This document shows, piece by piece, positions 861-25,906 of a stretch of 32,000 nt of DNA. Source of the DNA: Candidatus Helarchaeota ASGARD archaeon Hel_GB_B (GTDB taxonomy: Archaea > Asgardarchaeota > Lokiarchaeia > Helarchaeales > HEL-GB-B); the NCBI GenBank assembly GCA_005191425.1, contig SUPR01000004.1:1-32000 (forward strand), written 5' to 3'. Under the pieces are notes generated by a model. The model saw only the letters and a program-made list of their open reading frames with translations. It was not told where the DNA came from and searched no databases. Position 1 is the first letter of the stretch. Every line of letters starts with the position of its first letter. The position numbers and the translations under genes are program-made.

Positions 861-1808
861 TTGAGTTCTAATGAAAAAGGAAGTTTGACATCTATTCGAT
901 TTCATGCAAGAGGCGGTCAAGGAGGAGTCACAGCAGCTCAATTGGTGGTATATGCATACAATGGTCCTGCTAAATGTTTTCCAAGGTTCGGTGCTGAAAG
1001 AATGGGTTCTCCTACAGAAGCATTCACTAAAGTTTCTCAAGATGCGGAAGCTATAAGGTCCAATGAACAAGTTTATACTCCTCGATATGTTTGCATTTTA
1101 GATGATACAATTATAAATGATGTTTGCGTTACTAACGGTTTGGCACCGGGAGGTTGGCTAATAATCAATACTGTAAAAAATATTGATACATTAAAAAAGT
1201 TTATTGGTAGGTCAGACGTTAATTATGCACTCATTGATGCTACAGGGCTTGCTATTGAAATGCTAGGTAGGCCGATTACCAATACTGCAATTTTAGGTGC
1301 TTTATCTAAAGTATCTGGTTTATTCTCTATTAAAGATTTAGAAAAAGCTATTGAATTTCAATTTAGAGGTGATTTGGTCAAAAAAAATATTGATCTAGTA
1401 AAAGCAGTTTATGACAAAGTTCAAATTTATAAAGTAGATATTCCTTATGATTCTAAGAAAGCAGAGAAACCTAAATGGAATCACGTTGAAGTTGAATATC
1501 AAGGTGCTAAAGATTATGAAATTGGTGCTGTTTGGTATACTCAAGGAGCTTCTTTACAAGTAAATACCGGGTCATGGGGTGCTTATAAAATTCTCTATGA
1601 CCCAGACCATTGTATTCAATGCCAAAAATGTTTTTATGTATGTCCTGATATGGCAATTTTACGAGAAAAGCAATCTAATGGAGAGTGGCATATTGTAGGC
1701 ACGGACGCAAAACATTGTAAAGGATGTAGGTTATGTGTCGAAGTTTGTCCTGGAAAAGACGGGGTAAAAGCTAGATCTGCTAAATTAAAAGAGGAGGTAG
1801 AGTTTTAA
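861..1808 (+). CDS. 2-oxoacid (pyruvate-type):ferredoxin oxidoreductase, fused gamma + delta subunits
   Basis: N-terminus IRFHARGGQGGVTAAQLVV is the gamma-subunit signature. The C-terminus carries two ferredoxin-type motifs, CIQCQKCFYVCP and CKGCRLCVEVCP, typical of the delta subunit. TTG start, with no in-frame ATG nearby. The stop abuts the next ATG (TAAATG). Confidence 0.85.
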   Translation: MSSNEKGSLTSIRFHARGGQGGVTAAQLVVYAYNGPAKCFPRFGAERMGSPTEAFTKVSQDAEAIRSNEQVYTPRYVCILDDTIINDVCVTNGLAPGGWLIINTVKNIDTLKKFIGRSDVNYALIDATGLAIEMLGRPITNTAILGALSKVSGLFSIKDLEKAIEFQFRGDLVKKNIDLVKAVYDKVQIYKVDIPYDSKKAEKPKWNHVEVEYQGAKDYEIGAVWYTQGASLQVNTGSWGAYKILYDPDHCIQCQKCFYVCPDMAILREKQSNGEWHIVGTDAKHCKGCRLCVEVCPGKDGVKARSAKLKEEVEF

Positions 1809-3044
1809 ATGAGTGTTCAACCAATGGAACCATTTTTTAAAGAGATAAAAGAACCTATTGAATTAGCAATGACTGGAAATTATGCTGTTGCAGGTGGAGT
1901 CACCCAGACTGACCCTGATGTTATATGTGCATTTCCAATTACACCCCAAACACAATCAGTAGAAGGGTTATCAGATGTAATTTATAATGGACGTTTAAAA
2001 GCAGCATTTGTTAATGTTGAATCTGAGTTAGCAGCAATGAGTTTTAGTACAGCAGCTTGCGCTTCAGGAGCAAGGACATTTACCGCCACAGCAAGTCAAG
2101 GGTATATGTTAATGATGGAAGCACTACCAATGGCAGTGGGCTGGCGAGTTCCATTAACTATGCTAATCTCAGCTAGGGCATTTAACGCACCCAATCTAAG
2201 CATCTGGAATGCTTGGGAATTCACATTGGCAGATTTGGGTTGGAATACAATTGTCGCAGAAAACGTTCAAGAAACTTATGATAATTCGATAATTTCTGTA
2301 ATGATTGCTGAAAAAACACTTTTTCCTACTATGTTTGTCCACGATGGATTCATTATCTCGCATGCAGTCCATAAATTTATTACATTAGCTGATGAACAAG
2401 TACGAAAATTAACACCTCAATTAAAAAGACATGTAATTACCCCTGAAAAACCTGGCTTATGGGGCTCTCTTGTTACTCCTGAGCAATTAATGGAACAAAG
2501 ATTAGCAATCGACCTTGCAAAAAAAGAAGTACCCCCTAAAATTGATGAAGCTTTTAAGGAATTTGGTAAAGAAACTGGAAGATATTATAATCAAATCGAG
2601 ACAAATAAATGTGATGGCGCAAAAGTCGCAATTATTTCTATGGGGTCAGTTTGCGGTAATATCGCATCATGGCAAGACAAAAACCCAGGAATTGGATTAA
2701 TTAAAATCAGAACATACCGTCCGTTCCCGACATTTCAACTTCGTAAAATTATTGAAGATTGTGGTATAGAAAAAGTCGCAATTATAGAGAAATTTGATGC
2801 TCCGGGTGCACCACTTGCTCAAGTAGGATCTAGCGTTATACCTGCCTTATACCCATTAGGAATACCCATAAAAGATTTTATAGCTGGATACGGTGGCAGA
2901 GATATAACAAAAGACGAATTTGACTTGATTAAAAGAAAAATGGACAAAGTGACTGGTATTCCATCTCAATTTTACGAATATATTGGTGTTAGAGAGTCTA
3001 AAGGAAAATTATGGGATCCAAACCCGATGGAGGTTTCAAAATGA
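1809..3044 (+). CDS. 2-oxoacid:ferredoxin oxidoreductase alpha subunit
   Basis: N-terminus MTGNYAVAGGVTQTDPDVICAFPITPQT matches the PorA/VorA/KorA family pattern (GNxAxAxG...YPITPxT). The 411 aa length is typical and it sits between the gamma/delta and beta genes. Substrate (pyruvate, 2-ketoisovalerate or 2-oxoglutarate) cannot be told from sequence by eye. Confidence 0.85.
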   Translation: MSVQPMEPFFKEIKEPIELAMTGNYAVAGGVTQTDPDVICAFPITPQTQSVEGLSDVIYNGRLKAAFVNVESELAAMSFSTAACASGARTFTATASQGYMLMMEALPMAVGWRVPLTMLISARAFNAPNLSIWNAWEFTLADLGWNTIVAENVQETYDNSIISVMIAEKTLFPTMFVHDGFIISHAVHKFITLADEQVRKLTPQLKRHVITPEKPGLWGSLVTPEQLMEQRLAIDLAKKEVPPKIDEAFKEFGKETGRYYNQIETNKCDGAKVAIISMGSVCGNIASWQDKNPGIGLIKIRTYRPFPTFQLRKIIEDCGIEKVAIIEKFDAPGAPLAQVGSSVIPALYPLGIPIKDFIAGYGGRDITKDEFDLIKRKMDKVTGIPSQFYEYIGVRESKGKLWDPNPMEVSK

Positions 3045-4129
3045 GCGAAAGTAAAAAATCTGAAGTTGTAAAAATAGATGACCTGTTAAAAAAAGACTCA
3101 CATAATTATTTTCTCTATATTAACTATGACAATGAAGCGTTTATGAATACGGGAATTCAAGAATCTGGTTCCACACCCCCATTCGCATCAACGACAACAG
3201 GACCTGGTGGCAAAAAAATTAAGGGAAAAATCGGAATTAAACAAGATATCATCAATTCGCTCGTTTTCTTAGGGTATAAAAGTGGGTTTTTTGCAACTGC
3301 AAATCCAGCATACCCTGTTGATTTAATAGGAAAAGTCGTAGAAGCAATGAAAACTCCGGGCTGTGGCTTTATTCATATAATTTCTCCATGTATGCGTGGA
3401 TGGCGATACCCAGAAAACCAAACTTATACAATATCAAAACTTGCAACAGAATCTGGCTATTTTCCTTTATTTTCTATTCATGTTAAAGATGGAAGACCTA
3501 CATATGCTCTTAATAGGAAAATAAATACAGATAAAGAAAAATTATTCAAATTTATTTCAATGATGGGTAAATATAGACATTTATTTAAACCTGACAAACT
3601 TGATTTCAACCTCGATTCTATTTATAACAGTGTCTTACGACGGAACCAAAACATTCTCGATCTAGTCGATAAATTTAAAGGCAAATCGGAAATTCGGGTA
3701 TATTCAGGAAAATTATCTAGATTTCCAAACCAAGAACATATTTGTGGTGGACATGGATTATGCCTTGGGTGCGGTGAAGGTGAAATTATAAATCAAGTAG
3801 CAATTGCTGCTCAAATGGTCGCTGGAAAAAATGTAATTTATACAAACGCTACTAGTTGTCTAGAAGTTTCAACATCAAAAGACAATTTAGGTTCATGGAA
3901 AGTTCCATGGGTACACCATCTATTTGAAACAGCTGCTACTGTAGCTGATGGGATATCAACTGCTTATAGAATTTTAAAATCAAAAAATAAATATAAAGGA
4001 GACCTTCCATATATAATTGCATTAGGCGGAGACGGTGGCACCTTCGACATCGGTTTTCAATTCTTAAAAAGTGCTCTCGTACGATCTGGAACTTGGGGTA
4101 TAATGAATGATCTTCTTGCTGAAAAATAA
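3041..4129 (+). CDS. 2-oxoacid:ferredoxin oxidoreductase beta (TPP-binding) subunit, apparently circularly permuted
   Basis: The YDNEAFMNTGIQESGSTP...TTTGPGGK...ISPCMRGW...FPLF...GKYRHL block (normally the C-terminal half) comes first. The GHGLCLGCG...TSCLEV...VPWVHHLFETAA...GGDGGTFDIGFQ block (normally the N-terminal half) comes last. I prefer ATG 3041, which has GGAGG 8 nt upstream and an ATGA overlap with the alpha stop, over the track start at 3011. Confidence 0.8.
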   Translation: MSESKKSEVVKIDDLLKKDSHNYFLYINYDNEAFMNTGIQESGSTPPFASTTTGPGGKKIKGKIGIKQDIINSLVFLGYKSGFFATANPAYPVDLIGKVVEAMKTPGCGFIHIISPCMRGWRYPENQTYTISKLATESGYFPLFSIHVKDGRPTYALNRKINTDKEKLFKFISMMGKYRHLFKPDKLDFNLDSIYNSVLRRNQNILDLVDKFKGKSEIRVYSGKLSRFPNQEHICGGHGLCLGCGEGEIINQVAIAAQMVAGKNVIYTNATSCLEVSTSKDNLGSWKVPWVHHLFETAATVADGISTAYRILKSKNKYKGDLPYIIALGGDGGTFDIGFQFLKSALVRSGTWGIMNDLLAEK

Positions 4130-4154: not shown

Positions 4155-4661
4155 TTATGTTAAATTATTTATTATATCATTATATGACATAGTTTTATTA
4201 CAATACATGCATTCTATTTCTAATGGATTTTTTCTCTTTAATTTATAATGTGTTTTTACTGGTTCATTACTGTTTGTGATACAATTTGGGTTTATACATT
4301 TAATATTAACATCAGTTATTTCATCAGGTAGTTCAACTCTTTTTTTACTTACTACATTCATATTTCTTATAATGCTAATAGTGGCTTCAGGTGATATTAA
4401 AGCAATAACATTAATTTCATTCGGGTCTAATTCTCTGTTTTCAATTTTCACAACATCTTTATATCCAGTTTCTAATTTTCCAGAGGGGACATTCATTGCA
4501 ACAGAGATTATATTGCCTTCTTTTCCAGTTATTTTCAATATCCTCAATACATATAGCGCATTTCCCGGATTAATGTGGTCAATAACAGTACCTTCCTTAA
4601 TCTTTCTAATTCTTAAAGATTCCTCTAAATCATTTTGTACCATTTTCAAACTTCCTTTCAT
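4155..4661 (-). CDS. pyrI: aspartate carbamoyltransferase regulatory chain
   Basis: IRKIKEGTVIDHINPGNALYVLRILK matches the PyrI allosteric-domain signature (IKNGTVIDHI). The C-terminal zinc domain has CINPNC...CMYC. An alternative start is the second Met (MVQ...). Confidence 0.8.
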   Translation of the reverse strand: MKGSLKMVQNDLEESLRIRKIKEGTVIDHINPGNALYVLRILKITGKEGNIISVAMNVPSGKLETGYKDVVKIENRELDPNEINVIALISPEATISIIRNMNVVSKKRVELPDEITDVNIKCINPNCITNSNEPVKTHYKLKRKNPLEIECMYCNKTMSYNDIINNLT

Positions 4662-5347: not shown

Positions 5348-6550
5348 ATGCTAATTGGAATTGTAGGAAAACCTAATTGTGGAAAAACAACATTTCTTAA
5401 TGCTGCTTGTCTAACCTCTGCGAAAGTAGCAAATTATCCATTCACTACTATTGAACCAAATCTTGGAAAAGCTTATGTTAGAAAAAATTGTGTTTGTAAA
5501 GAATTAAATATTAAAGATAACCCTAAAAATTCTTTATGTATTGATGGTATTCGATTAATACCAATCGATCTGTTGGATGTTGCGGGGCTTGTCCCAGACG
5601 CTTGGAAAGGAAGAGGTCTTGGTAATAAATTCCTCGATGATTTAAGAAGAGCTGATGCACTTATTCATGTAATCGATGCCTCTGGCTCTACAGATTCAGA
5701 AGGAAAACCAGTTGAACCAGGTAGTTGGGATCCTCTAAATGATGTTATATTCTTAGAAAAAGAAATTACTTATTGGTTTAATAATATTGTAAACAGAGAT
5801 TGGCAGAAATTTGTTAGGACGCTAAAAGCTGAAAAAATATCTTTCGTCGATAAAATGTGTGACCGCCTCTCTGGACTGTCTATTAAACGAAAACATGTAG
5901 TCCAAGCATTAAAAGAGGCTAATTTGAACCCGGACAAACTTTCTGAATGGACTGAAGACGATATTTTTTCATTTTCGGACGCATTAAGAAAAATTTCAAA
6001 GCCCATGTTAATATTAGCAAATAAAGGTGATCAAAATACAGCTAAAAAAAATATTAAACGATTGCAAGAGTCGACAAATTATATTGTTATTCCTGGATGC
6101 GCTTTAGGCGAATATTGGCTACGAAAATATGCTGAAAAAGGACAAATCAAATATATTCCGGGCGATCCTGAATTTGAAATTTTGAACCCAAATTCGTTTT
6201 CAAAACAAGAACTTGAAATATTAAATAATCTTAAAGCTTATATGAAGGAAAACGGGTCAACCGGAGTCCAGAAAGCTTTAGACACTGCTGTTTTTGAATT
6301 ATTAGATATGATAACTGTATTCCCTGTTCATAACCCATCAAATTTTACAGATAAAGATAATAATGTCTTACCAGATGTCTATCTTGTTAAAAATGGGACA
6401 AATATTAAAGAATTCGCAGGAAAAATTCATACTGACCTTCAACAATCTTTTTTACATGGAATTAACGCTCGGACTAAACAACGATTAGGCGAAGGATATA
6501 TCCTTCACGACCGAGATATCGTTAAAATCGTTTCAATAAAAGGGACATGA
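5348..6550 (+). CDS. OBG/YchF-superfamily GTPase (Ygr210-like) with C-terminal TGS-like domain
   Basis: P-loop [14 protein letters not shown]2 region YPFTTIEPN and G3 DVAGLV. The C-terminal DRDIVKIVS is TGS-like. ATG 5348 chosen; the in-frame GTG 5339 (track start) is the alternative. Confidence 0.8.
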
Positions 6551-6649
6551 CTATATTGTCTTATCTATAATTAGTTAAAGTTTGATCTTATAATATTTTT
6601 TTAAAAAATCTAAAATTACTTTATCATAAATAACAAAGACTATCATTTT

Positions 6650-7009
6650 TCACTTATTTCTGTATTTTTTTTCATAATATCCCGGTTCTTTCTTAGTACC
6701 GAATGACCTCACACCATATAATAATAATTGGGTTTTAAGTTCATTTGCATAATTTTGGTCTATTTCGCCTCGTTTTAGACAATAATTTATAATTTCTATA
6801 GCTTGGCCATCAGTATCTGCCCGCCTAATAAACGATATCACATCAGGATTTTGTAATTCATCAGGTATTTTGTTATCTTCTGAATTATCTGAAGTTTCTT
6901 TTGACCTAATACTTCTTATTGTTAAATTACTTTTATTTTCTAAAATTTCCTTCAATAAATTTGGAAATTCTTTTTTAAATTTCTCTTCATCGTCTGATAT
7001 TCTGCTCAC
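6650..7009 (-). CDS. conserved archaeal hypothetical protein (DUF2095-like)
   Basis: 119 aa with FPNLLKEI...SFIRRADTDGQAIEIINYCLKRGEI...GVRSFG...GYY. This resembles my memory of the archaeal DUF2095 family, so the assignment is tentative. Confidence 0.45.
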   Translation of the reverse strand: MSRISDDEEKFKKEFPNLLKEILENKSNLTIRSIRSKETSDNSEDNKIPDELQNPDVISFIRRADTDGQAIEIINYCLKRGEIDQNYANELKTQLLLYGVRSFGTKKEPGYYEKKYRNK

Positions 7010-7295
7010 CTTGCTTTAATTTTTCTATTTCTTTCCCCACAGGCCAGTAAATTAAAAATAAAATAACTATTCCGCTTACTATAAACAAAATCATAACTGG
7101 AATATACGGAAAAGTGAGAAATAACCCGACTATTATAATAATTATCAAAATATACACTGCATTTTTTACTCTGTTTAATATATGCAAAAATTCTTTTTCT
7201 ATTTTCTGCTTTATTTCTAATTCTTTATTTTGTAGCTCTTCAATTGCTTTCTTTTTCTGTTTCCAAGATTTAGTCGATTTCTTTTGAGTTGCCAT
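6987..7295 (-). CDS. small membrane protein with N-terminal charged helix
   Basis: 102 aa: a Lys/Glu-rich N-terminus followed by two hydrophobic segments (VYILIIIIIVGLFLTFPYIPVMILFIVSGIVILFLIYW). Overlaps the next gene by 23 nt. No recognisable family. Confidence 0.4.
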   Translation of the reverse strand: MATQKKSTKSWKQKKKAIEELQNKELEIKQKIEKEFLHILNRVKNAVYILIIIIIVGLFLTFPYIPVMILFIVSGIVILFLIYWPVGKEIEKLKQGEQNIRR

Positions 7296-16567: not shown

Positions 16568-17305
16568 GTGCTAAGATACTATGATTTAAATGTAGAAATA
16601 GATATTAACAACGATTTTAATTCTATTGCTAAAAACCTTTTGTTTTATAAAGATCTTGGATACTATGGATTAGGAATTGTATATCCTTTAAATAAAATAA
16701 AAGAATTTAATGATTTAAGAAGAAGTTTGGAAGATGATAAATTCAAATTATATTCCAGGATAAATATTAAAGCAAAAAATATACAAGGATTAAAGTCCAT
16801 ATTAAAAAACATTAGAACAAAATATGATTTAATAGCAATTGAATGTTTTGATATTAATACTGCTCATTGGGCTATTCAAGATTCTAGACCGGATATAATT
16901 GTCCTCAACGATTTTGGTATAAATAATTATGGTTATTCAACAGCAAAATTATTAAGTAATAATAATAAAGCTCTTGAGTTATCTTTAAAATCATTGATTC
17001 GAGACCCATATTGGAGAAAATCGAAATTTTTAAGGGTGAATTCAAAAATTATGCAACATATCATAAAGGCTAAATCTTATTTTATTATAACTACAAACTC
17101 GAAAGCAGGTCATATATATTATATAAGGGCTCCAAGGGACTTGATGACTTTATTATACTTATTAGATGTACCAGAAAACATTGCAAAAAAGTCCGTTTCA
17201 GAGTTTCCTGAAAAAATTATCCTACAAGCTTTAGACAAAAAAAACCCTAATATAATTAGTAAAAATATACGCGTCATTAATAATAGAGGAAATAATGGAG
17301 AATGA
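16568..17305 (+). CDS. rnp3: RNase P protein component 3 (Rpp30 homolog)
   Basis: Starts MLRYYDLNV (the family typically starts ..YDL.V). It is 245 aa and immediately followed by, and overlapping, the Pop5 gene. GTG start. Divergent sequence, so moderate confidence. Confidence 0.65.
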   Translation: MLRYYDLNVEIDINNDFNSIAKNLLFYKDLGYYGLGIVYPLNKIKEFNDLRRSLEDDKFKLYSRINIKAKNIQGLKSILKNIRTKYDLIAIECFDINTAHWAIQDSRPDIIVLNDFGINNYGYSTAKLLSNNNKALELSLKSLIRDPYWRKSKFLRVNSKIMQHIIKAKSYFIITTNSKAGHIYYIRAPRDLMTLLYLLDVPENIAKKSVSEFPEKIILQALDKKNPNIISKNIRVINNRGNNGE

Positions 17306-17628
17306 AATTAGAAAAACATCGATTTGTGGTATTTAAATTCTATTCTGAGAACACTATTTTAAAAGATAATTTTATAAAAGGAATTTGGGACTCTATTTAT
17401 AAAATCTTTGGGTATAAAGGTGCATCTGAAACTGGTCTATGGATAATAGAATTTGATAATGTTAATAAGAAAGGGATTATCAGGTGTTCTGTGAAATCTC
17501 TTAATTATATTAAAATTGCATTAATTTTAACAACATATATTCCCAAAGATAATCCAGTAATGTTTCAAATTGTAGGTGTTTCGGGGACAATTAAAAAAGC
17601 AAAAGAAAAATTTTATAATGAATGCTAA
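17302..17628 (+). CDS. rnp2: RNase P protein component 2 (Pop5 homolog)
   Basis: KHRFVVFKF...IFGYKGASETGLWIIEF...GIIRCSVKS...VGVSGTIKKAKEKF matches the Pop5 pattern (RYI.FE, GIVRC, SGTIK). ATGA overlap with the upstream gene. Confidence 0.75.
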   Translation: MKLEKHRFVVFKFYSENTILKDNFIKGIWDSIYKIFGYKGASETGLWIIEFDNVNKKGIIRCSVKSLNYIKIALILTTYIPKDNPVMFQIVGVSGTIKKAKEKFYNEC

Positions 17629-21953: not shown

Positions 21954-22670
21954 ATGTTTACACCAGCTGGTCTAGGATATGATCGAGCTATTACAATTTT
22001 TAGTCCTGATGGTAGATTATTTCAAGTTGAATATGCAATAGAAGCAGTCCGTAGAGGGACTACTGCTATAGGTATATGTTATAAAGATGGAGTGGTTCTT
22101 GTTGTGGAAAAAAGAATATTAGATTTACAAGAACCAGATTCTATTGAAAAAATATTTAAAATAGATAATCACATCGGGTGTGCAATTGCTGGGTTAACAG
22201 CTGACGCTCGAGTTTTAATAGATCAAGCTCGAATCGAATGTCAAATTAATCTTCTCACTTATGATGAACCAATAAGTGTAAAAAGACTGACAAAAAAAGT
22301 TTGTGAATTAAAACAGAAATATACACAATATGCTGGAGTACGCCCATTTGGAGTTTCTCTTTTAATTGCCGGTGTTGATGATGTTGATGGGCCAAGCATC
22401 TATATGACTGACCCTTCAGGTGCATATTGGGGATATTACGCAACAGCAATTGGAGCAGGGGCACAAAGCGTTAGAGAAATTTTAGAAAAAGAATATAAAA
22501 AAGATTTATCAAAGGATGAAGCAATACTTTTAACTTTGAAATGTTTGAAATCTATTCTTGATGAAGAATTAGACCCCTCAAAAGCTGAAATAGCTTTAGT
22601 TGATGCATCGGATAAAACATTCAAGATTTTGCCCCCAGACGAATTGAAAAATTATGTTGATAAATTATAA
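21954..22670 (+). CDS. psmA: proteasome subunit alpha
   Basis: GYDRAITIFSPDGRLFQVEYA is the alpha-subunit signature. 238 aa. Confidence 0.95.
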   Translation: MFTPAGLGYDRAITIFSPDGRLFQVEYAIEAVRRGTTAIGICYKDGVVLVVEKRILDLQEPDSIEKIFKIDNHIGCAIAGLTADARVLIDQARIECQINLLTYDEPISVKRLTKKVCELKQKYTQYAGVRPFGVSLLIAGVDDVDGPSIYMTDPSGAYWGYYATAIGAGAQSVREILEKEYKKDLSKDEAILLTLKCLKSILDEELDPSKAEIALVDASDKTFKILPPDELKNYVDKL

Positions 22671-22703
22671 TTTTTATTATAATTTTTAGGAAGTTAGGAT
22701 GTA

Positions 22704-23420
22704 TTGTCGGGTATTCGTGGAGATAAAAGAATAGATATTGGAAAAAATATAATTGCAAGTTATGAAGAAAAAGGGTTGAAATTTGAAATAATAGTAGACC
22801 CTGATAAATCTTGGGAATATCGAGATGGAAAAGACATTGATTTATCTAATGTACTTATTGGATACACTATATTTGAAGATGTCATGCGTGGAGAAAGGGC
22901 AAATGTTGAAGATTTAATTGATATTTTTGGCACTGATGATGTATTTAAAATAGCAGATAAAATTCTAAAAGAAGGAAATATTCAGCTTACAAAAGAACGA
23001 AGGAAAAGGTTACTGGAAGAAAAAAGGAAATTATTAATTAATTATTTGATTAAAAATAGTATTGACCCCACAAAAAATCTCCCGCATCCCCCGGCAAGAA
23101 TCGAGAGAGCTATTGAAGAAGCTAAAGTCCATATCGATCCATTTTTGGATATTAAAAAGCAAGCAGAAAATGTTGTCTCAAAAATTTCTTCTATAATTCC
23201 CATTAGATTAGAAGTATTACGAATTGCTCTAAAAATTCCAAGTAAATTTTCTGCAAAATCATATGGAATAATTGAAAAATATGGGACAATTGAAAAAGAT
23301 GAATGGCAAAAAGATGGTTCATGGATTGTCATTGTCCAACTTCCTTCTGGACTACAACAGAAATTAATTGATGACATGAATAATTTAACAAAAGGAAAAT
23401 TTGAATTAAAAAGATTATAA
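22704..23420 (+). CDS. ribosome maturation protein SBDS/Sdo1 homolog
   Basis: IASYEEKGLKFEIIVDPDKSWEYRDG matches the SBDS N-terminal (FYSH) domain. The ~238 aa length and the conserved position between psmA and rrp4 also fit. TTG start. Confidence 0.85.
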   Translation: MSGIRGDKRIDIGKNIIASYEEKGLKFEIIVDPDKSWEYRDGKDIDLSNVLIGYTIFEDVMRGERANVEDLIDIFGTDDVFKIADKILKEGNIQLTKERRKRLLEEKRKLLINYLIKNSIDPTKNLPHPPARIERAIEEAKVHIDPFLDIKKQAENVVSKISSIIPIRLEVLRIALKIPSKFSAKSYGIIEKYGTIEKDEWQKDGSWIVIVQLPSGLQQKLIDDMNNLTKGKFELKRL

Positions 23421-23504
23421 CAATAATTCGATTGGATTACCTATATACCAAATATTTACACTCCTTTTATTTTTTAAACAATAAAAGTTACTGTAGTGAA
23501 AATC

Positions 23505-24323
23505 ATGTTTGATGAAGACAATTTCAACGAAAATGGAGAATTAAATAATTTGAATAAAGACGAAGAGAATAAAATAAAATCCGAAATTGGAAATAATGAA
23601 ACCAAAAGTGAAAAAGAAGAAGAACCAAGTAGAAAATTAGTAATGCCTGGTGAATTACTTAATGAAGGAAATTATAAAGCAGGTATAGGCACTTATATAG
23701 CTGATAAAAAGATTTATGCTGCAACTCTAGGTTTATTAGAAATAAAAGGGCAGTATGTTAATGTAATTCCAATTAAAGGACCATATATACCCAAGGTGGG
23801 TGATTCTGTTATAGGAATGGTAATTAATACATCTATTGTATCTTGGAAAGTTGACATTTTTTCACCTTATATTGCGACTTTACACGCAACAAATTACCTA
23901 AATAGACCATTTAACCCCCTTAGAGACGATATTAGACAATATATTGACATTGGTGATACTATTTATGCAGAAATAATATCTTTTAATAGGACAAGAGATC
24001 CTGTTTTATCAGTACGAAATAAAGGACTGGGTAAATTAAAAGGTGGTCGGTTAATTCATATGGTACCTACTAAAGTCCCAAGATTGATTGGTAGGAGAGG
24101 TTCTATGATTAATTTAATAAAAGATTATACCCATTGTAAATTTAAAATTGGTCAAAATGGGGTAATTTGGCTTCAAGGAAATAAATTTGAGGACGAATTT
24201 TTAGTTGTTAAAATAATTAGGAAAATTGAGAGAGAAGCACACACATTGGGTTTAACTGATCGTATAAAAGAATTTATTGAAAAAGAAAAGAAACGGAGTG
24301 ATGTTGATAATGGAGTTAATTAA
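23505..24323 (+). CDS. rrp4: exosome complex RNA-binding subunit Rrp4 (S1 + KH)
   Basis: VMPGELL...GDSVIGMV (S1) and RLIGRRGSMINLIK (KH, GxxG) are present. A ~45-aa low-complexity N/E/K-rich N-terminal extension is unusual. GTG 23496 is the alternative start. Confidence 0.9.
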   Translation: MFDEDNFNENGELNNLNKDEENKIKSEIGNNETKSEKEEEPSRKLVMPGELLNEGNYKAGIGTYIADKKIYAATLGLLEIKGQYVNVIPIKGPYIPKVGDSVIGMVINTSIVSWKVDIFSPYIATLHATNYLNRPFNPLRDDIRQYIDIGDTIYAEIISFNRTRDPVLSVRNKGLGKLKGGRLIHMVPTKVPRLIGRRGSMINLIKDYTHCKFKIGQNGVIWLQGNKFEDEFLVVKIIRKIEREAHTLGLTDRIKEFIEKEKKRSDVDNGVN

Positions 24324-25071
24324 GTTAGAAAAACCTGAAAAATTAATAGATGAAAATAACATTAGAGTGGATGGGAGAAAATTAAATGATTTAAGACCTA
24401 TTAAAATGGAAGTAGGTGTTTTACCCAAAGCAAATGGTTCAGCTTATGTGGAAATGGGCGGTAATAAAATACTAGCTTCTGTTTATGGCCCAAGAGAGGT
24501 ACATCCACGTCATTTAGCTGAATCAAATAAAGCTGTTTTTAGATGTTTATATAGAATGGCTACATTTTCAGTTGATGAGAGAAAAAGCCCCGCACCTAGT
24601 AGAAGAGAAAATGAATTATCTATGGTCATTGGGCAGGCTTTGGAACCTGCAATATTTCTAAATTATTATCCTAAAACTATGATCGAATGCACTATTCTAG
24701 TAATTCAAGCTGATGGGGGCACAAGATGCGCAAGTATTAACGCTGCTTCGCTAGCATTAGCTGATGCTGGAATTGCAATGCGCGGATTAGTTTCTGCAGT
24801 GGCAATTGGTAAAGCTGATGGCAAATTAATTGTAGATTTAAATAATGTTGAAGACCAATTTGGCGAAGGTGATTTACCAATAGCAATATTATATCCATTA
24901 AAAGAAGTTTCATTGATTCAATTTGATGGAATACTGACAAACGAAGAATTCCAGCAATGCATTAATTTAGCCTATGATGCGTGCGAGATTATTTTCAATA
25001 AACAAATAGAAGCACTTCATAAAAGATATTCTAAAGAAATTATTGAAAAGGACAATAAAAAGGAGGCATAA
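24310..25071 (+). CDS. rrp41: exosome complex exonuclease Rrp41 (RNase PH domain)
   Basis: RVDGRKLNDLRPIKMEVGVLPKANGSAYVEMGGNKILASVYGPRE is the RNase PH signature. ATG 24310, with GGAG about 10 nt upstream, is preferred. The track start is TTG 24277. Confidence 0.9.
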   Translation: MELIKLEKPEKLIDENNIRVDGRKLNDLRPIKMEVGVLPKANGSAYVEMGGNKILASVYGPREVHPRHLAESNKAVFRCLYRMATFSVDERKSPAPSRRENELSMVIGQALEPAIFLNYYPKTMIECTILVIQADGGTRCASINAASLALADAGIAMRGLVSAVAIGKADGKLIVDLNNVEDQFGEGDLPIAILYPLKEVSLIQFDGILTNEEFQQCINLAYDACEIIFNKQIEALHKRYSKEIIEKDNKKEA

Positions 25072-25075
25072 GTAT

Positions 25076-25906
25076 ATGAGTTCATATGATGTTATACCTG
25101 AAATTGAGAAAAATTATATTAAAGAATTGTTATCAAAAGGTAAAAGACTTGATGGTAGGGCATTAGACGAATTTAGAGAAATTAAAATAGAGAAAGATAT
25201 AATTAAAAAAGCAGAAGCTTCTGCCCGAGTTACTATCGGAAATACTATTGTTATTATCGGTATAAAAGTTTCAGCTGGGCCTCCATATCCTGACAGTCCA
25301 GATTCTGGAGTAGTTACAATCAATGCTGAATTACTACCTTTGGCATCATCACATTTTGAATCAGGTCCGCCGAGCGCATTTGCTATTGAAGTTGCAAGAG
25401 TTTGCGATAGAGGGATTAGACATTCTGATATTATCGATAAAACAACCTTATGTATAATTGAAGGTGAGATCGTTTACATTATTTTTGGGGACATATACGC
25501 AATCAGTTTTGACGGCAATTTATTTGATGCAGGTGAATTAGCATTAACTACAGCATTAAGCTCTCTTAAAATACCTGAATATGAAATAATAGAATCTGAA
25601 AATGGTAAAAAGGAAGTTAATTTTATTAATTCGTGGAAAAAAGTTGAAGTTAATGATATTCCTGTTAGCATTTCTATTGGTAAAATTGGTAAAACCCTTT
25701 TCATAGACCCTGATGAAAAAGAAGAATTAGCACTCGACTCACGAATTACCTTTACTTTTAATAAAAATAACGAGCTGATATCACTTCAAAAAGGTTTAAG
25801 CGGACACTTTTCAAAAGAAGAAATACTTAAAGGTATGGAAATGGCTTTATCAAAAGTCGATATGTTGAGAAACAAAGTAATTGAATGCATTAAAGATTTT
25901 GAATAG
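25076..25906 (+). CDS. rrp42: exosome complex subunit Rrp42 (RNase PH-like, inactive)
   Basis: GKRLDGRALDEFREIKIE and the position after rrp41. ATG 25076 has AGGAGG upstream and lies 4 nt after the rrp41 stop. The track start TTG 25043 is less likely. Confidence 0.9.
   Translation: MSSYDVIPEIEKNYIKELLSKGKRLDGRALDEFREIKIEKDIIKKAEASARVTIGNTIVIIGIKVSAGPPYPDSPDSGVVTINAELLPLASSHFESGPPSAFAIEVARVCDRGIRHSDIIDKTTLCIIEGEIVYIIFGDIYAISFDGNLFDAGELALTTALSSLKIPEYEIIESENGKKEVNFINSWKKVEVNDIPVSISIGKIGKTLFIDPDEKEELALDSRITFTFNKNNELISLQKGLSGHFSKEEILKGMEMALSKVDMLRNKVIECIKDFE

Follow-up and report, generated by a model that had tools for sequence, protein, structure and literature searches.

Circular permutation of the PorB-type beta subunit in a predicted three-gene 2-oxoacid:ferredoxin oxidoreductase operon of Asgard archaea

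The best family-level match for the enzyme described here is the archaeal four-subunit PorABCD complex, a 2-oxoacid:ferredoxin oxidoreductase (OFOR) typified by the pyruvate:ferredoxin oxidoreductase (POR or PFOR) of Methanosarcina acetivorans (PDB 9bt4; NCBIfam models NF008819 PorB and NF040682 PorA_Arch); a second close relative is the oxalate oxidoreductase (OOR) of Moorella thermoacetica (PDB 5c4i/5exd). The beta subunit of such enzymes corresponds to domain VI, which combines the diphosphate-binding "PP" domain for thiamine pyrophosphate (TPP) with the proximal [4Fe-4S] site. We analyzed a three-gene OFOR operon in a window of 32,000 nt from the Candidatus Helarchaeota archaeon Hel_GB_B (contig SUPR01000004.1, positions 1 to 32,000), and in particular its beta subunit gene at 3041..4129 on the forward strand (362 amino acids plus stop; all unprefixed nucleotide coordinates refer to this window), the product of which carries the two halves of a PorB-type chain in swapped order.

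The alpha, beta and gamma parts of the Hel_GB_B enzyme all resemble PorABCD and share its cofactor motifs and four Cys ligands, but the beta halves are swapped, the gamma and delta subunits are fused, and the scores fall under the equivalog cut-offs. OOR is likewise encoded by three genes, one of which fuses domains III and V, so that the gamma-delta fusion itself is already known; unlike the Hel_GB_B chain, the OOR beta subunit is collinear, and the Hel_GB_B alpha and beta subunits score higher against Por than against OOR models, which provides no evidence for oxalate specificity. In TPP enzymes generally, the PYR and PP domains vary in order or in chain, as between transketolase and pyruvate decarboxylase, with the cofactor site kept. 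Those are whole-domain swaps, whereas the cut in the OFOR permutant falls within the PP domain and, more narrowly, within the GDG-X(~25)-NN motif. Natural circular permutants include the GTPases YlqF/RbgA, DNA methyltransferases and swaposins, in which the fold is kept and for which duplication followed by trimming is the usual explanation; to our knowledge, none of these is an OFOR or TPP-domain case. The original prediction knew of no described permuted OFOR beta subunit, and likewise we found no description of one, nor of a permuted PP domain of any TPP enzyme, in the full-text literature, the coverage of which leaves out most subscription journals. What is new is thus a rearranged beta subunit of a known kind of enzyme, not a new kind of system. 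It is proposed, with a probability of roughly 85%, that the product of the ORF (open reading frame) is a true circular permutant of a PorB-type beta subunit, maintained by selection, which arose once and fills the ordinary beta role in a three-gene OFOR.

Judged by its alignments, the ORF is a PorB-type beta subunit with circularly permuted halves. In phmmer searches against all PDB chains the best match was oxalate oxidoreductase 5c4i (2.8e-47), which was covered in two stretches of reversed order: query residues 225-348 align to 5c4i_C 8-127 (i-E 1.4e-21) and residues 24-185 to 5c4i_C 131-287 (i-E 5.6e-23). The Methanosarcina PFOR beta chain 9bt4_C was matched in the same two-stretch reversed pattern, and the halves are 38-46% identical to canonical PorB. 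Query residues 24-213 align to residues 142-330 of the undoubled canonical PorB P0123; when P0123 was concatenated with itself, blastp returned a single alignment (query 24-348 to 142-469, 39% identity, E 2e-65) that runs contiguously across the 331/332 junction, and doubled P0124, P0125 and P0127 likewise align as one stretch. The collinear order (CxxC half, GDG, DN half, C-terminus) is therefore reversed in this chain, to a degree that these alignments place far beyond chance. A permuted order of two complementary halves of one beta subunit was what the original prediction had claimed, and both the PDB and the doubled-PorB alignments bear it out.

All the motifs quoted in that prediction are present at verified positions: YDNEAFMNTG at residues 29-38 (3125-3154), ISPC with C117 (3389-3391), FPLF and GKYRHL in the first segment, and CLGC at 241-244 (3761-3772), TSC with C273 (3857-3859) and GGDGG at 329-333 (GDG, 4028-4036) in the second. 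The first segment also includes the C-terminal helix of canonical relatives; the second includes WVHHLFE and ends at the invariant R348. The canonical chain is swapped at residue ~128-130, with ~3 canonical residues unaccounted for between ..ER-GHD and F.Y.CYDNE. With R348 the last and residue 24 the first aligned residue, the chain is broken between the helix that follows GDG and the YDNE strand, and hence, in sequence terms, inside the GDG-X(~25)-NN motif that binds TPP and Mg, as had been foreseen. The predicted ORF at 3041..4129 exists, but it begins 21 residues upstream of HNYF, near which its start had been placed. A second in-frame ATG is found at 3011; the ATG at 3041, which overlaps the alpha (porA) stop codon as ATGA, is preferred because orthologs begin with MSE.. 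and the identical database protein (P0001) has 362 amino acids.

The segments of the chain are listed with the other subunits of the operon in Table 1. The head is without a canonical counterpart; I10, D14, L16 and R18 are conserved in the family, and a strand (residues 5-11) and a helix (12-16) are predicted, with a predicted local distance difference test score (pLDDT) of 94 for residues 11-20. In the tail, M355 (0.81), N356 (0.89) and L359 (0.87) are the conserved positions, at pLDDT <50. Most of what had been taken for a linker between the halves is ancestral: residues 186-212 match the C-terminal helix that the nearest canonical relatives possess (FRHLFKP....IDE.Q..VD..W..LLKK) and residues 224-233 (KLSRFPNQEH) the canonical N-terminus (KLSELPTEDY), so that the new junction spans ~10 residues at most and the join is nearly seamless. 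The alignments to doubled P0123, P0124 and P0125 cross it with 0-7 gap columns, and residues 201-230 are modelled at pLDDT 87-92.

Table 1. Window coordinates of the OFOR subunit genes and of the segments of the beta chain
Feature	Residues	Position	Strand	Basis
Fused gamma-delta subunit	315 aa	861..1808	+	Pfam POR 1.1e-23, Fer4_21 9.9e-11
Alpha subunit, domains I and II, canonical order	411 aa	1809..3044	+	Pfam POR_N 8.9e-50, PFOR_II 7.6e-13
Beta, new N-terminal head	1-23	3041..3109	+	Canonical alignments begin at residues 20-24
Beta, segment homologous to the C-terminal half of canonical PorB	24-212	3110..3676	+	Alignments to 5c4i_C, P0123
Beta, junction from old C-terminus to old N-terminus	213-223	3677..3709	+	Predicted beta strand
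Beta, segment homologous to the N-terminal half of canonical PorB	224-348	3710..4084	+	Alignment to 5c4i_C 8-127
Beta, new C-terminal tail	349-362	4085..4126	+	Conservation; model confidence low

The permuted chain recurs widely and nearly unchanged in length. The swapped order occurs in at least 120 protein clusters; the best 120 are all full length, at 340-375 amino acids, with 93-100% query coverage and 51-100% identity. Among GTDB genomes, taken one per species, 150 loci were confirmed, and nearly all of the best 80, to which the counts below refer, are labelled Asgard (Hel-, Loki-/Promethearchaeia, Thor-, Hermod- and Hod-archaeota, Sigynarchaeum). Among these loci are one on a closed chromosome (CP070831.1) and one on a 3.7-Mb scaffold. 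Gamma-delta, alpha and beta follow in this order in 62 of the 80 loci and are tightly packed in 60 of those; 17 of the 18 remaining loci sit on a contig that ends upstream of beta or inside the operon, L009 being the one exception, with 6 kb of unrelated sequence ahead of its beta gene. The gamma-delta fusion, which the original prediction had noted in the Hel_GB_B operon and which combines POR and Fer4 domains in a single ORF, is kept in related loci. Two short contigs with the permuted operon are binned elsewhere, WJJB01000299.1 (L002) as Bathyarchaeota and DATKTW010000155.1 (L039) in the actinobacterial family Nanopelagicaceae; these labels are probably binning errors and not true occurrences outside Asgard.

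In an alignment of 24 members reaching down to 51% identity, mean column identity is 68%, and D30, N31, E32, N36, T37, G38, C117, C241, C244, C273, G330, D331, G332 and R348 are invariant. The TPP/Mg motif, GDG at 330-332 plus YDNEAFMNTG at 29-38, is thus split across the chain termini with both parts invariant. In the alignments C241, C244, C273 and C117 occupy the Cys positions of canonical chains (CxxC, TxC and PC), and we take them to be the proximal [4Fe-4S] ligands, as in the Desulfovibrio africanus PFOR; their retention had been predicted and holds throughout the alignment. Between the Hel_GB_B beta gene and its 83%-identical ortholog in L001, the nonsynonymous rate (dN) is 0.117 with the synonymous rate (dS) saturated, and against more distant orthologs dN/dS is 0.17-0.24, values that bespeak strong purifying selection on the permuted gene. 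Together with a predicted template modelling score (pTM) of 0.82, this conservation and selection support the earlier view of a functional permutant and not a wreck.

That score comes from an AlphaFold2 monomer model built with the family alignment (mean pLDDT 73), in which six core strands show the expected alternation with helices. The best PDB matches in Foldseek are OFOR beta chains, 9bt4_C and 5exd/5c4i; the accurate alignments cover one half only (120-126 columns, root-mean-square deviation ~2 Å, 36-37% identity), the outcome that an order-dependent aligner should produce with a permutant. The TPP motif has a beta-alpha-beta topology, in which GDG closes a first strand, the helix after it runs in the return direction, and a second strand brings in NN. 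Given this topology the cut loop should lie far from the metal site; the cut would fall in a helix-to-strand loop at the sheet edge distal to Mg-TPP, a permissive site for new termini.

As for the working of the enzyme, the chain runs from just before the YDNE..NTG strand through the fourth cluster Cys, the old C-terminal helix and the old N-terminus (CxxC, TSC) to the GDG strand and its helix. On folding, the chain ends would rebuild the GDG-helix-strand-N unit, and Mg-TPP and the cluster would then be bound in the canonical manner; the conserved head and tail probably clasp the cut. The complex is predicted to be an active OFOR using TPP and three [4Fe-4S] clusters. It would decarboxylate a 2-oxoacid, most likely pyruvate or another short one, with CoA to acyl-CoA and CO2 and would reduce ferredoxin. 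Alpha, beta and gamma all score best against pyruvate-type models, below the equivalog cut-offs; alpha, for instance, reaches 292 bits against PorA_Arch, under the cut-off of 550. In the gamma-delta ORF, residues 18-184 form the POR/CoA-binding domain III and residues 243-301 the 2x[4Fe-4S] ferredoxin domain V, with NCBIfam matches to PorC (6.6e-49), PorD_Arch (8.6e-18) and OxalOxreddelta (1.8e-23 over residues 46-299).

The alternative that survives best is compatible with this proposal. It holds that permutation went with neofunctionalization, that is, with a changed substrate, partner or direction, such as a different 2-oxoacid, operation as a CO2-fixing synthase, or a different assembly through head and tail. 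Canonical PorBs occur in Asgard genomes (P0312, Lokiarchaeota; P0321, Hodarchaeota; P0324, Promethearchaeota), which makes the permuted operon an additional paralog and not the only POR, and the permuted clade has a long stem. Its head and tail are conserved, invariant GIQES and WVHHLFE(T/S) stand in place of GIQRS and FEN, and in Loki-type loci an enoyl-CoA hydratase gene (ECH_1) follows directly in 36 of the 80 and an ADP-forming acyl-CoA synthetase-like gene lies near in 12. The preference of alpha, beta and gamma for pyruvate-type models speaks against a changed function, as does the absence of these Loki-type neighbor genes from the Hel_GB_B window, and we regard neofunctionalization as possible but on balance unlikely. 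The GIQES change could mean an altered function, and this residue change, the conserved head and tail and the downstream enoyl-CoA hydratase of the Loki-type loci leave room for a specialized role.

Further observations weigh against the proposed permutant or its assumed history. The monomer model is of low confidence at residues 33-66 (the cofactor loop), 274-284 and 352-362. In locus L009 the beta gene (6016-7065) stands alone, with no alpha or gamma-delta gene within 6 kb. The motif that is GIQRS in canonical relatives is invariably GIQES in the permuted family. No tandem double-length beta subunit is among the best 150 representatives of the protein search described below, and no split beta intermediates were found. 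Nor did head and tail show a significant trace of duplication: forced hhalign alignments placed the tail MN(E/D)xL on canonical YMNTG or on DNEAY, and in a column-shuffle test the observed score was reached by 0.36 of the shuffles for the tail and 0.34 for the head, neither of them significant.

The search for the origin of the rearrangement covered 1.84 billion representatives at 50% identity, of which the best 150 were inspected. The permuted family appears there as a single representative (P0023, 488 bits, one stretch over residues 1-361); the others, fragments aside, match in two stretches of canonical order at no more than 211 bits, and the proteins with three matched stretches are intein carriers or garbled. 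In a rough neighbor-joining tree, for which the Asgard sequences were un-permuted in silico, the permuted forms fall into one clade on a stem of 0.20, which speaks for a single origin; PorBs of Altiarchaeales and Bathyarchaeia are among the nearest canonical relatives. Most likely the rearrangement took place a single time, in an ancestor shared by many Asgard lineages. The route that seems most likely is a canonical porB gene, already with its C-terminal helix, that would have been duplicated in tandem and fused in frame and would then have lost both outer ends, and the near-seamless join favors such a duplication, fusion and trimming.

Gene fission followed by re-fusion in swapped order, perhaps seeded by an element inserted at the motif, could also lead to the present chain, and a doubled intermediate and duplication relics are indeed missing from the material just described. 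Some canonical relatives have inteins within a few residues of the break: P0122 is interrupted at ..GHDFTYV|[intein]|CYDNE, ~5 residues away from where the Asgard chain is broken, P0135 contains two inteins, after GGDGA and after YDNEAYMN, and P0163 has one after YDNEGYMN. Against fission, split beta genes are lacking and the old C-terminus is joined to the old N-terminus almost without a seam, as fusion of in-frame tandem copies predicts, so that we think this route improbable. The half-length candidates dissolve on inspection: P0187 and P0213 are pieces cut off at contig edges, the N-terminus of P0251 is non-homologous and looks like the product of a frameshift, and in P0121/L081 alpha and beta are both broken on the contig, which fits sequencing frameshifts. 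The three intein-bearing PorBs come from Altiarchaeales and unnamed metagenomes.

A decayed relic, kept as a pseudo-enzyme scaffold with no TPP chemistry, is suggested at first sight by the database scores and by the NCBI name "hypothetical protein". NCBIfam PorB gives 219.7 bits against a cut-off of 405 and VorB 183.3 against 405; the only Pfam match is TPP_enzyme_C at 15.1 bits against 21.9 (model positions 75-151 at residues 24-113), and PFO_beta_C does not match the beta chain. These scores are low because the permutation splits the match into two half-length pieces; the cofactor- and cluster-binding residues are all invariant, purifying selection is strong, and translational coupling links the gene to alpha and gamma-delta genes that are intact, all of which makes a relic very improbable. 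The reversed order of Pfam hits that the original prediction had offered as a check was set aside as too weak, since TPP_enzyme_C is present as a single sub-threshold match and PFO_beta_C, the other expected hit, is absent. The weakest explanation, that the assembler of this metagenome-assembled genome (P0001 being labelled accordingly as Ca. Helarchaeota) joined the halves wrongly, is effectively excluded by the recurrence of this order and length across at least 120 clusters and in ~150 species-level genomes, which stem from many studies and many assemblers and include a closed chromosome, by an order kept down to 51% identity, and by a conserved and confidently modelled junction; other assemblies, where canonical order had been named as the refuting outcome, repeat the permuted one.

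Because of the permutation, NCBI labels the protein hypothetical; most members are without a Pfam match, and IMG calls some of them PorB. For canonical Asgard PorBs, by contrast, the name is "thiamine pyrophosphate-dependent enzyme" and PF02775 is assigned. The result is an annotation blind spot, in which metabolic reconstructions can miss the beta subunit of a permuted OFOR. The permutant is also a natural experiment, in which the hallmark GDG-X-NN motif of TPP enzymes appears to tolerate a split across the chain termini, and it offers a discrete character for mapping on the Asgard tree and a possible rare-genomic-change marker. A bolder reading, which we put forward tentatively and consider on balance unlikely, is that a single ancient rare genomic change common to many Asgard lineages (in records labelled Hel-, Loki-, Thor-, Hermod-, Hod- and Sigyn-archaeota) defines an unrecognized class of OFOR, in which the new termini at the TPP motif and the conserved head and tail would alter assembly, cofactor loading or substrate use. 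Were this to hold, Asgard branching would gain a phylogenetic marker, and the 2-oxoacid catabolism believed to drive these archaea would include a distinct enzyme. In Asgard archaea, the prokaryotes most closely related to eukaryotes, OFORs are regarded as the core step of energy generation (Imachi et al. 2020, PMC7015854).

Several loci depart from the usual operon. The solitary beta gene of L009 belongs to a higher-GC Asgard genome (3.7-Mb scaffold JBGLND010000001.1) and lies between alcohol-dehydrogenase-like and ribonucleotide reductase-like genes. Unrelated ORFs of ~2.4 kb separate gamma-delta from alpha in two loci (L016:2388-4772 and L019:1619-4008), and ~1.4 kb including an opposite-strand cold-shock-like gene separates alpha from beta in a third (L074:4568-5985). 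A partial second copy of the beta 3' end is found 0.7-2.5 kb downstream of the intact gene at L017:2079-2240, L065:6114-6275 and L048:3596-3946; these copies span residues ~309-362 (~250-362 in L048, as a 116-aa ORF), unrelated genes intervene, and they look like the outcome of insertions into the beta 3' end that duplicated their target. In one Lokiarchaeota locus a 493-aa fusion of 2Fe-2S, ferredoxin and PorB modules in canonical order (P0312, at L051:3-860) lies immediately upstream of the permuted operon. Besides the genes already mentioned, UPF0047/YjbQ, likewise absent from the Hel_GB_B window, is a neighbor in 34 of the 80 loci; the Loki-type neighbor genes lie at L042:7132-7899, L044:3029-3445, L021:646-2082 and equivalent positions.

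In the Hel_GB_B window itself, the operon consists of three co-oriented, tightly packed ORFs spanning 861-4129. No ORF of at least 60 amino acids lies on the opposite strand beneath the beta gene, an Rfam scan of the window gave no matches, and a bacterial promoter and terminator scan was uninformative, since the host is an archaeon. The identical protein P0001, recorded from a Candidatus Helarchaeota metagenome-assembled genome, is present on six contigs (NCBI, JGI and ENA). Directly after the operon, on the opposite strand, is pyrI (aspartate carbamoyltransferase regulatory chain, 4155-4661) with no adjacent pyrB. Elsewhere the window carries ordinary archaeal chromosomal genes, among them those for a [NiFe]-hydrogenase large subunit, CofC/CofD, RNase P subunits, L15e, prefoldin and alanyl-tRNA synthetase (AlaRS). 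The RNase P subunits p30 and Pop5 at 16568-17628 (+) and the conserved archaeal cluster of proteasome alpha, SBDS, Rrp4, Rrp41 and Rrp42 at 21954-25906 (+) indicate that the operon sits in the core chromosome and not in a mobile element.

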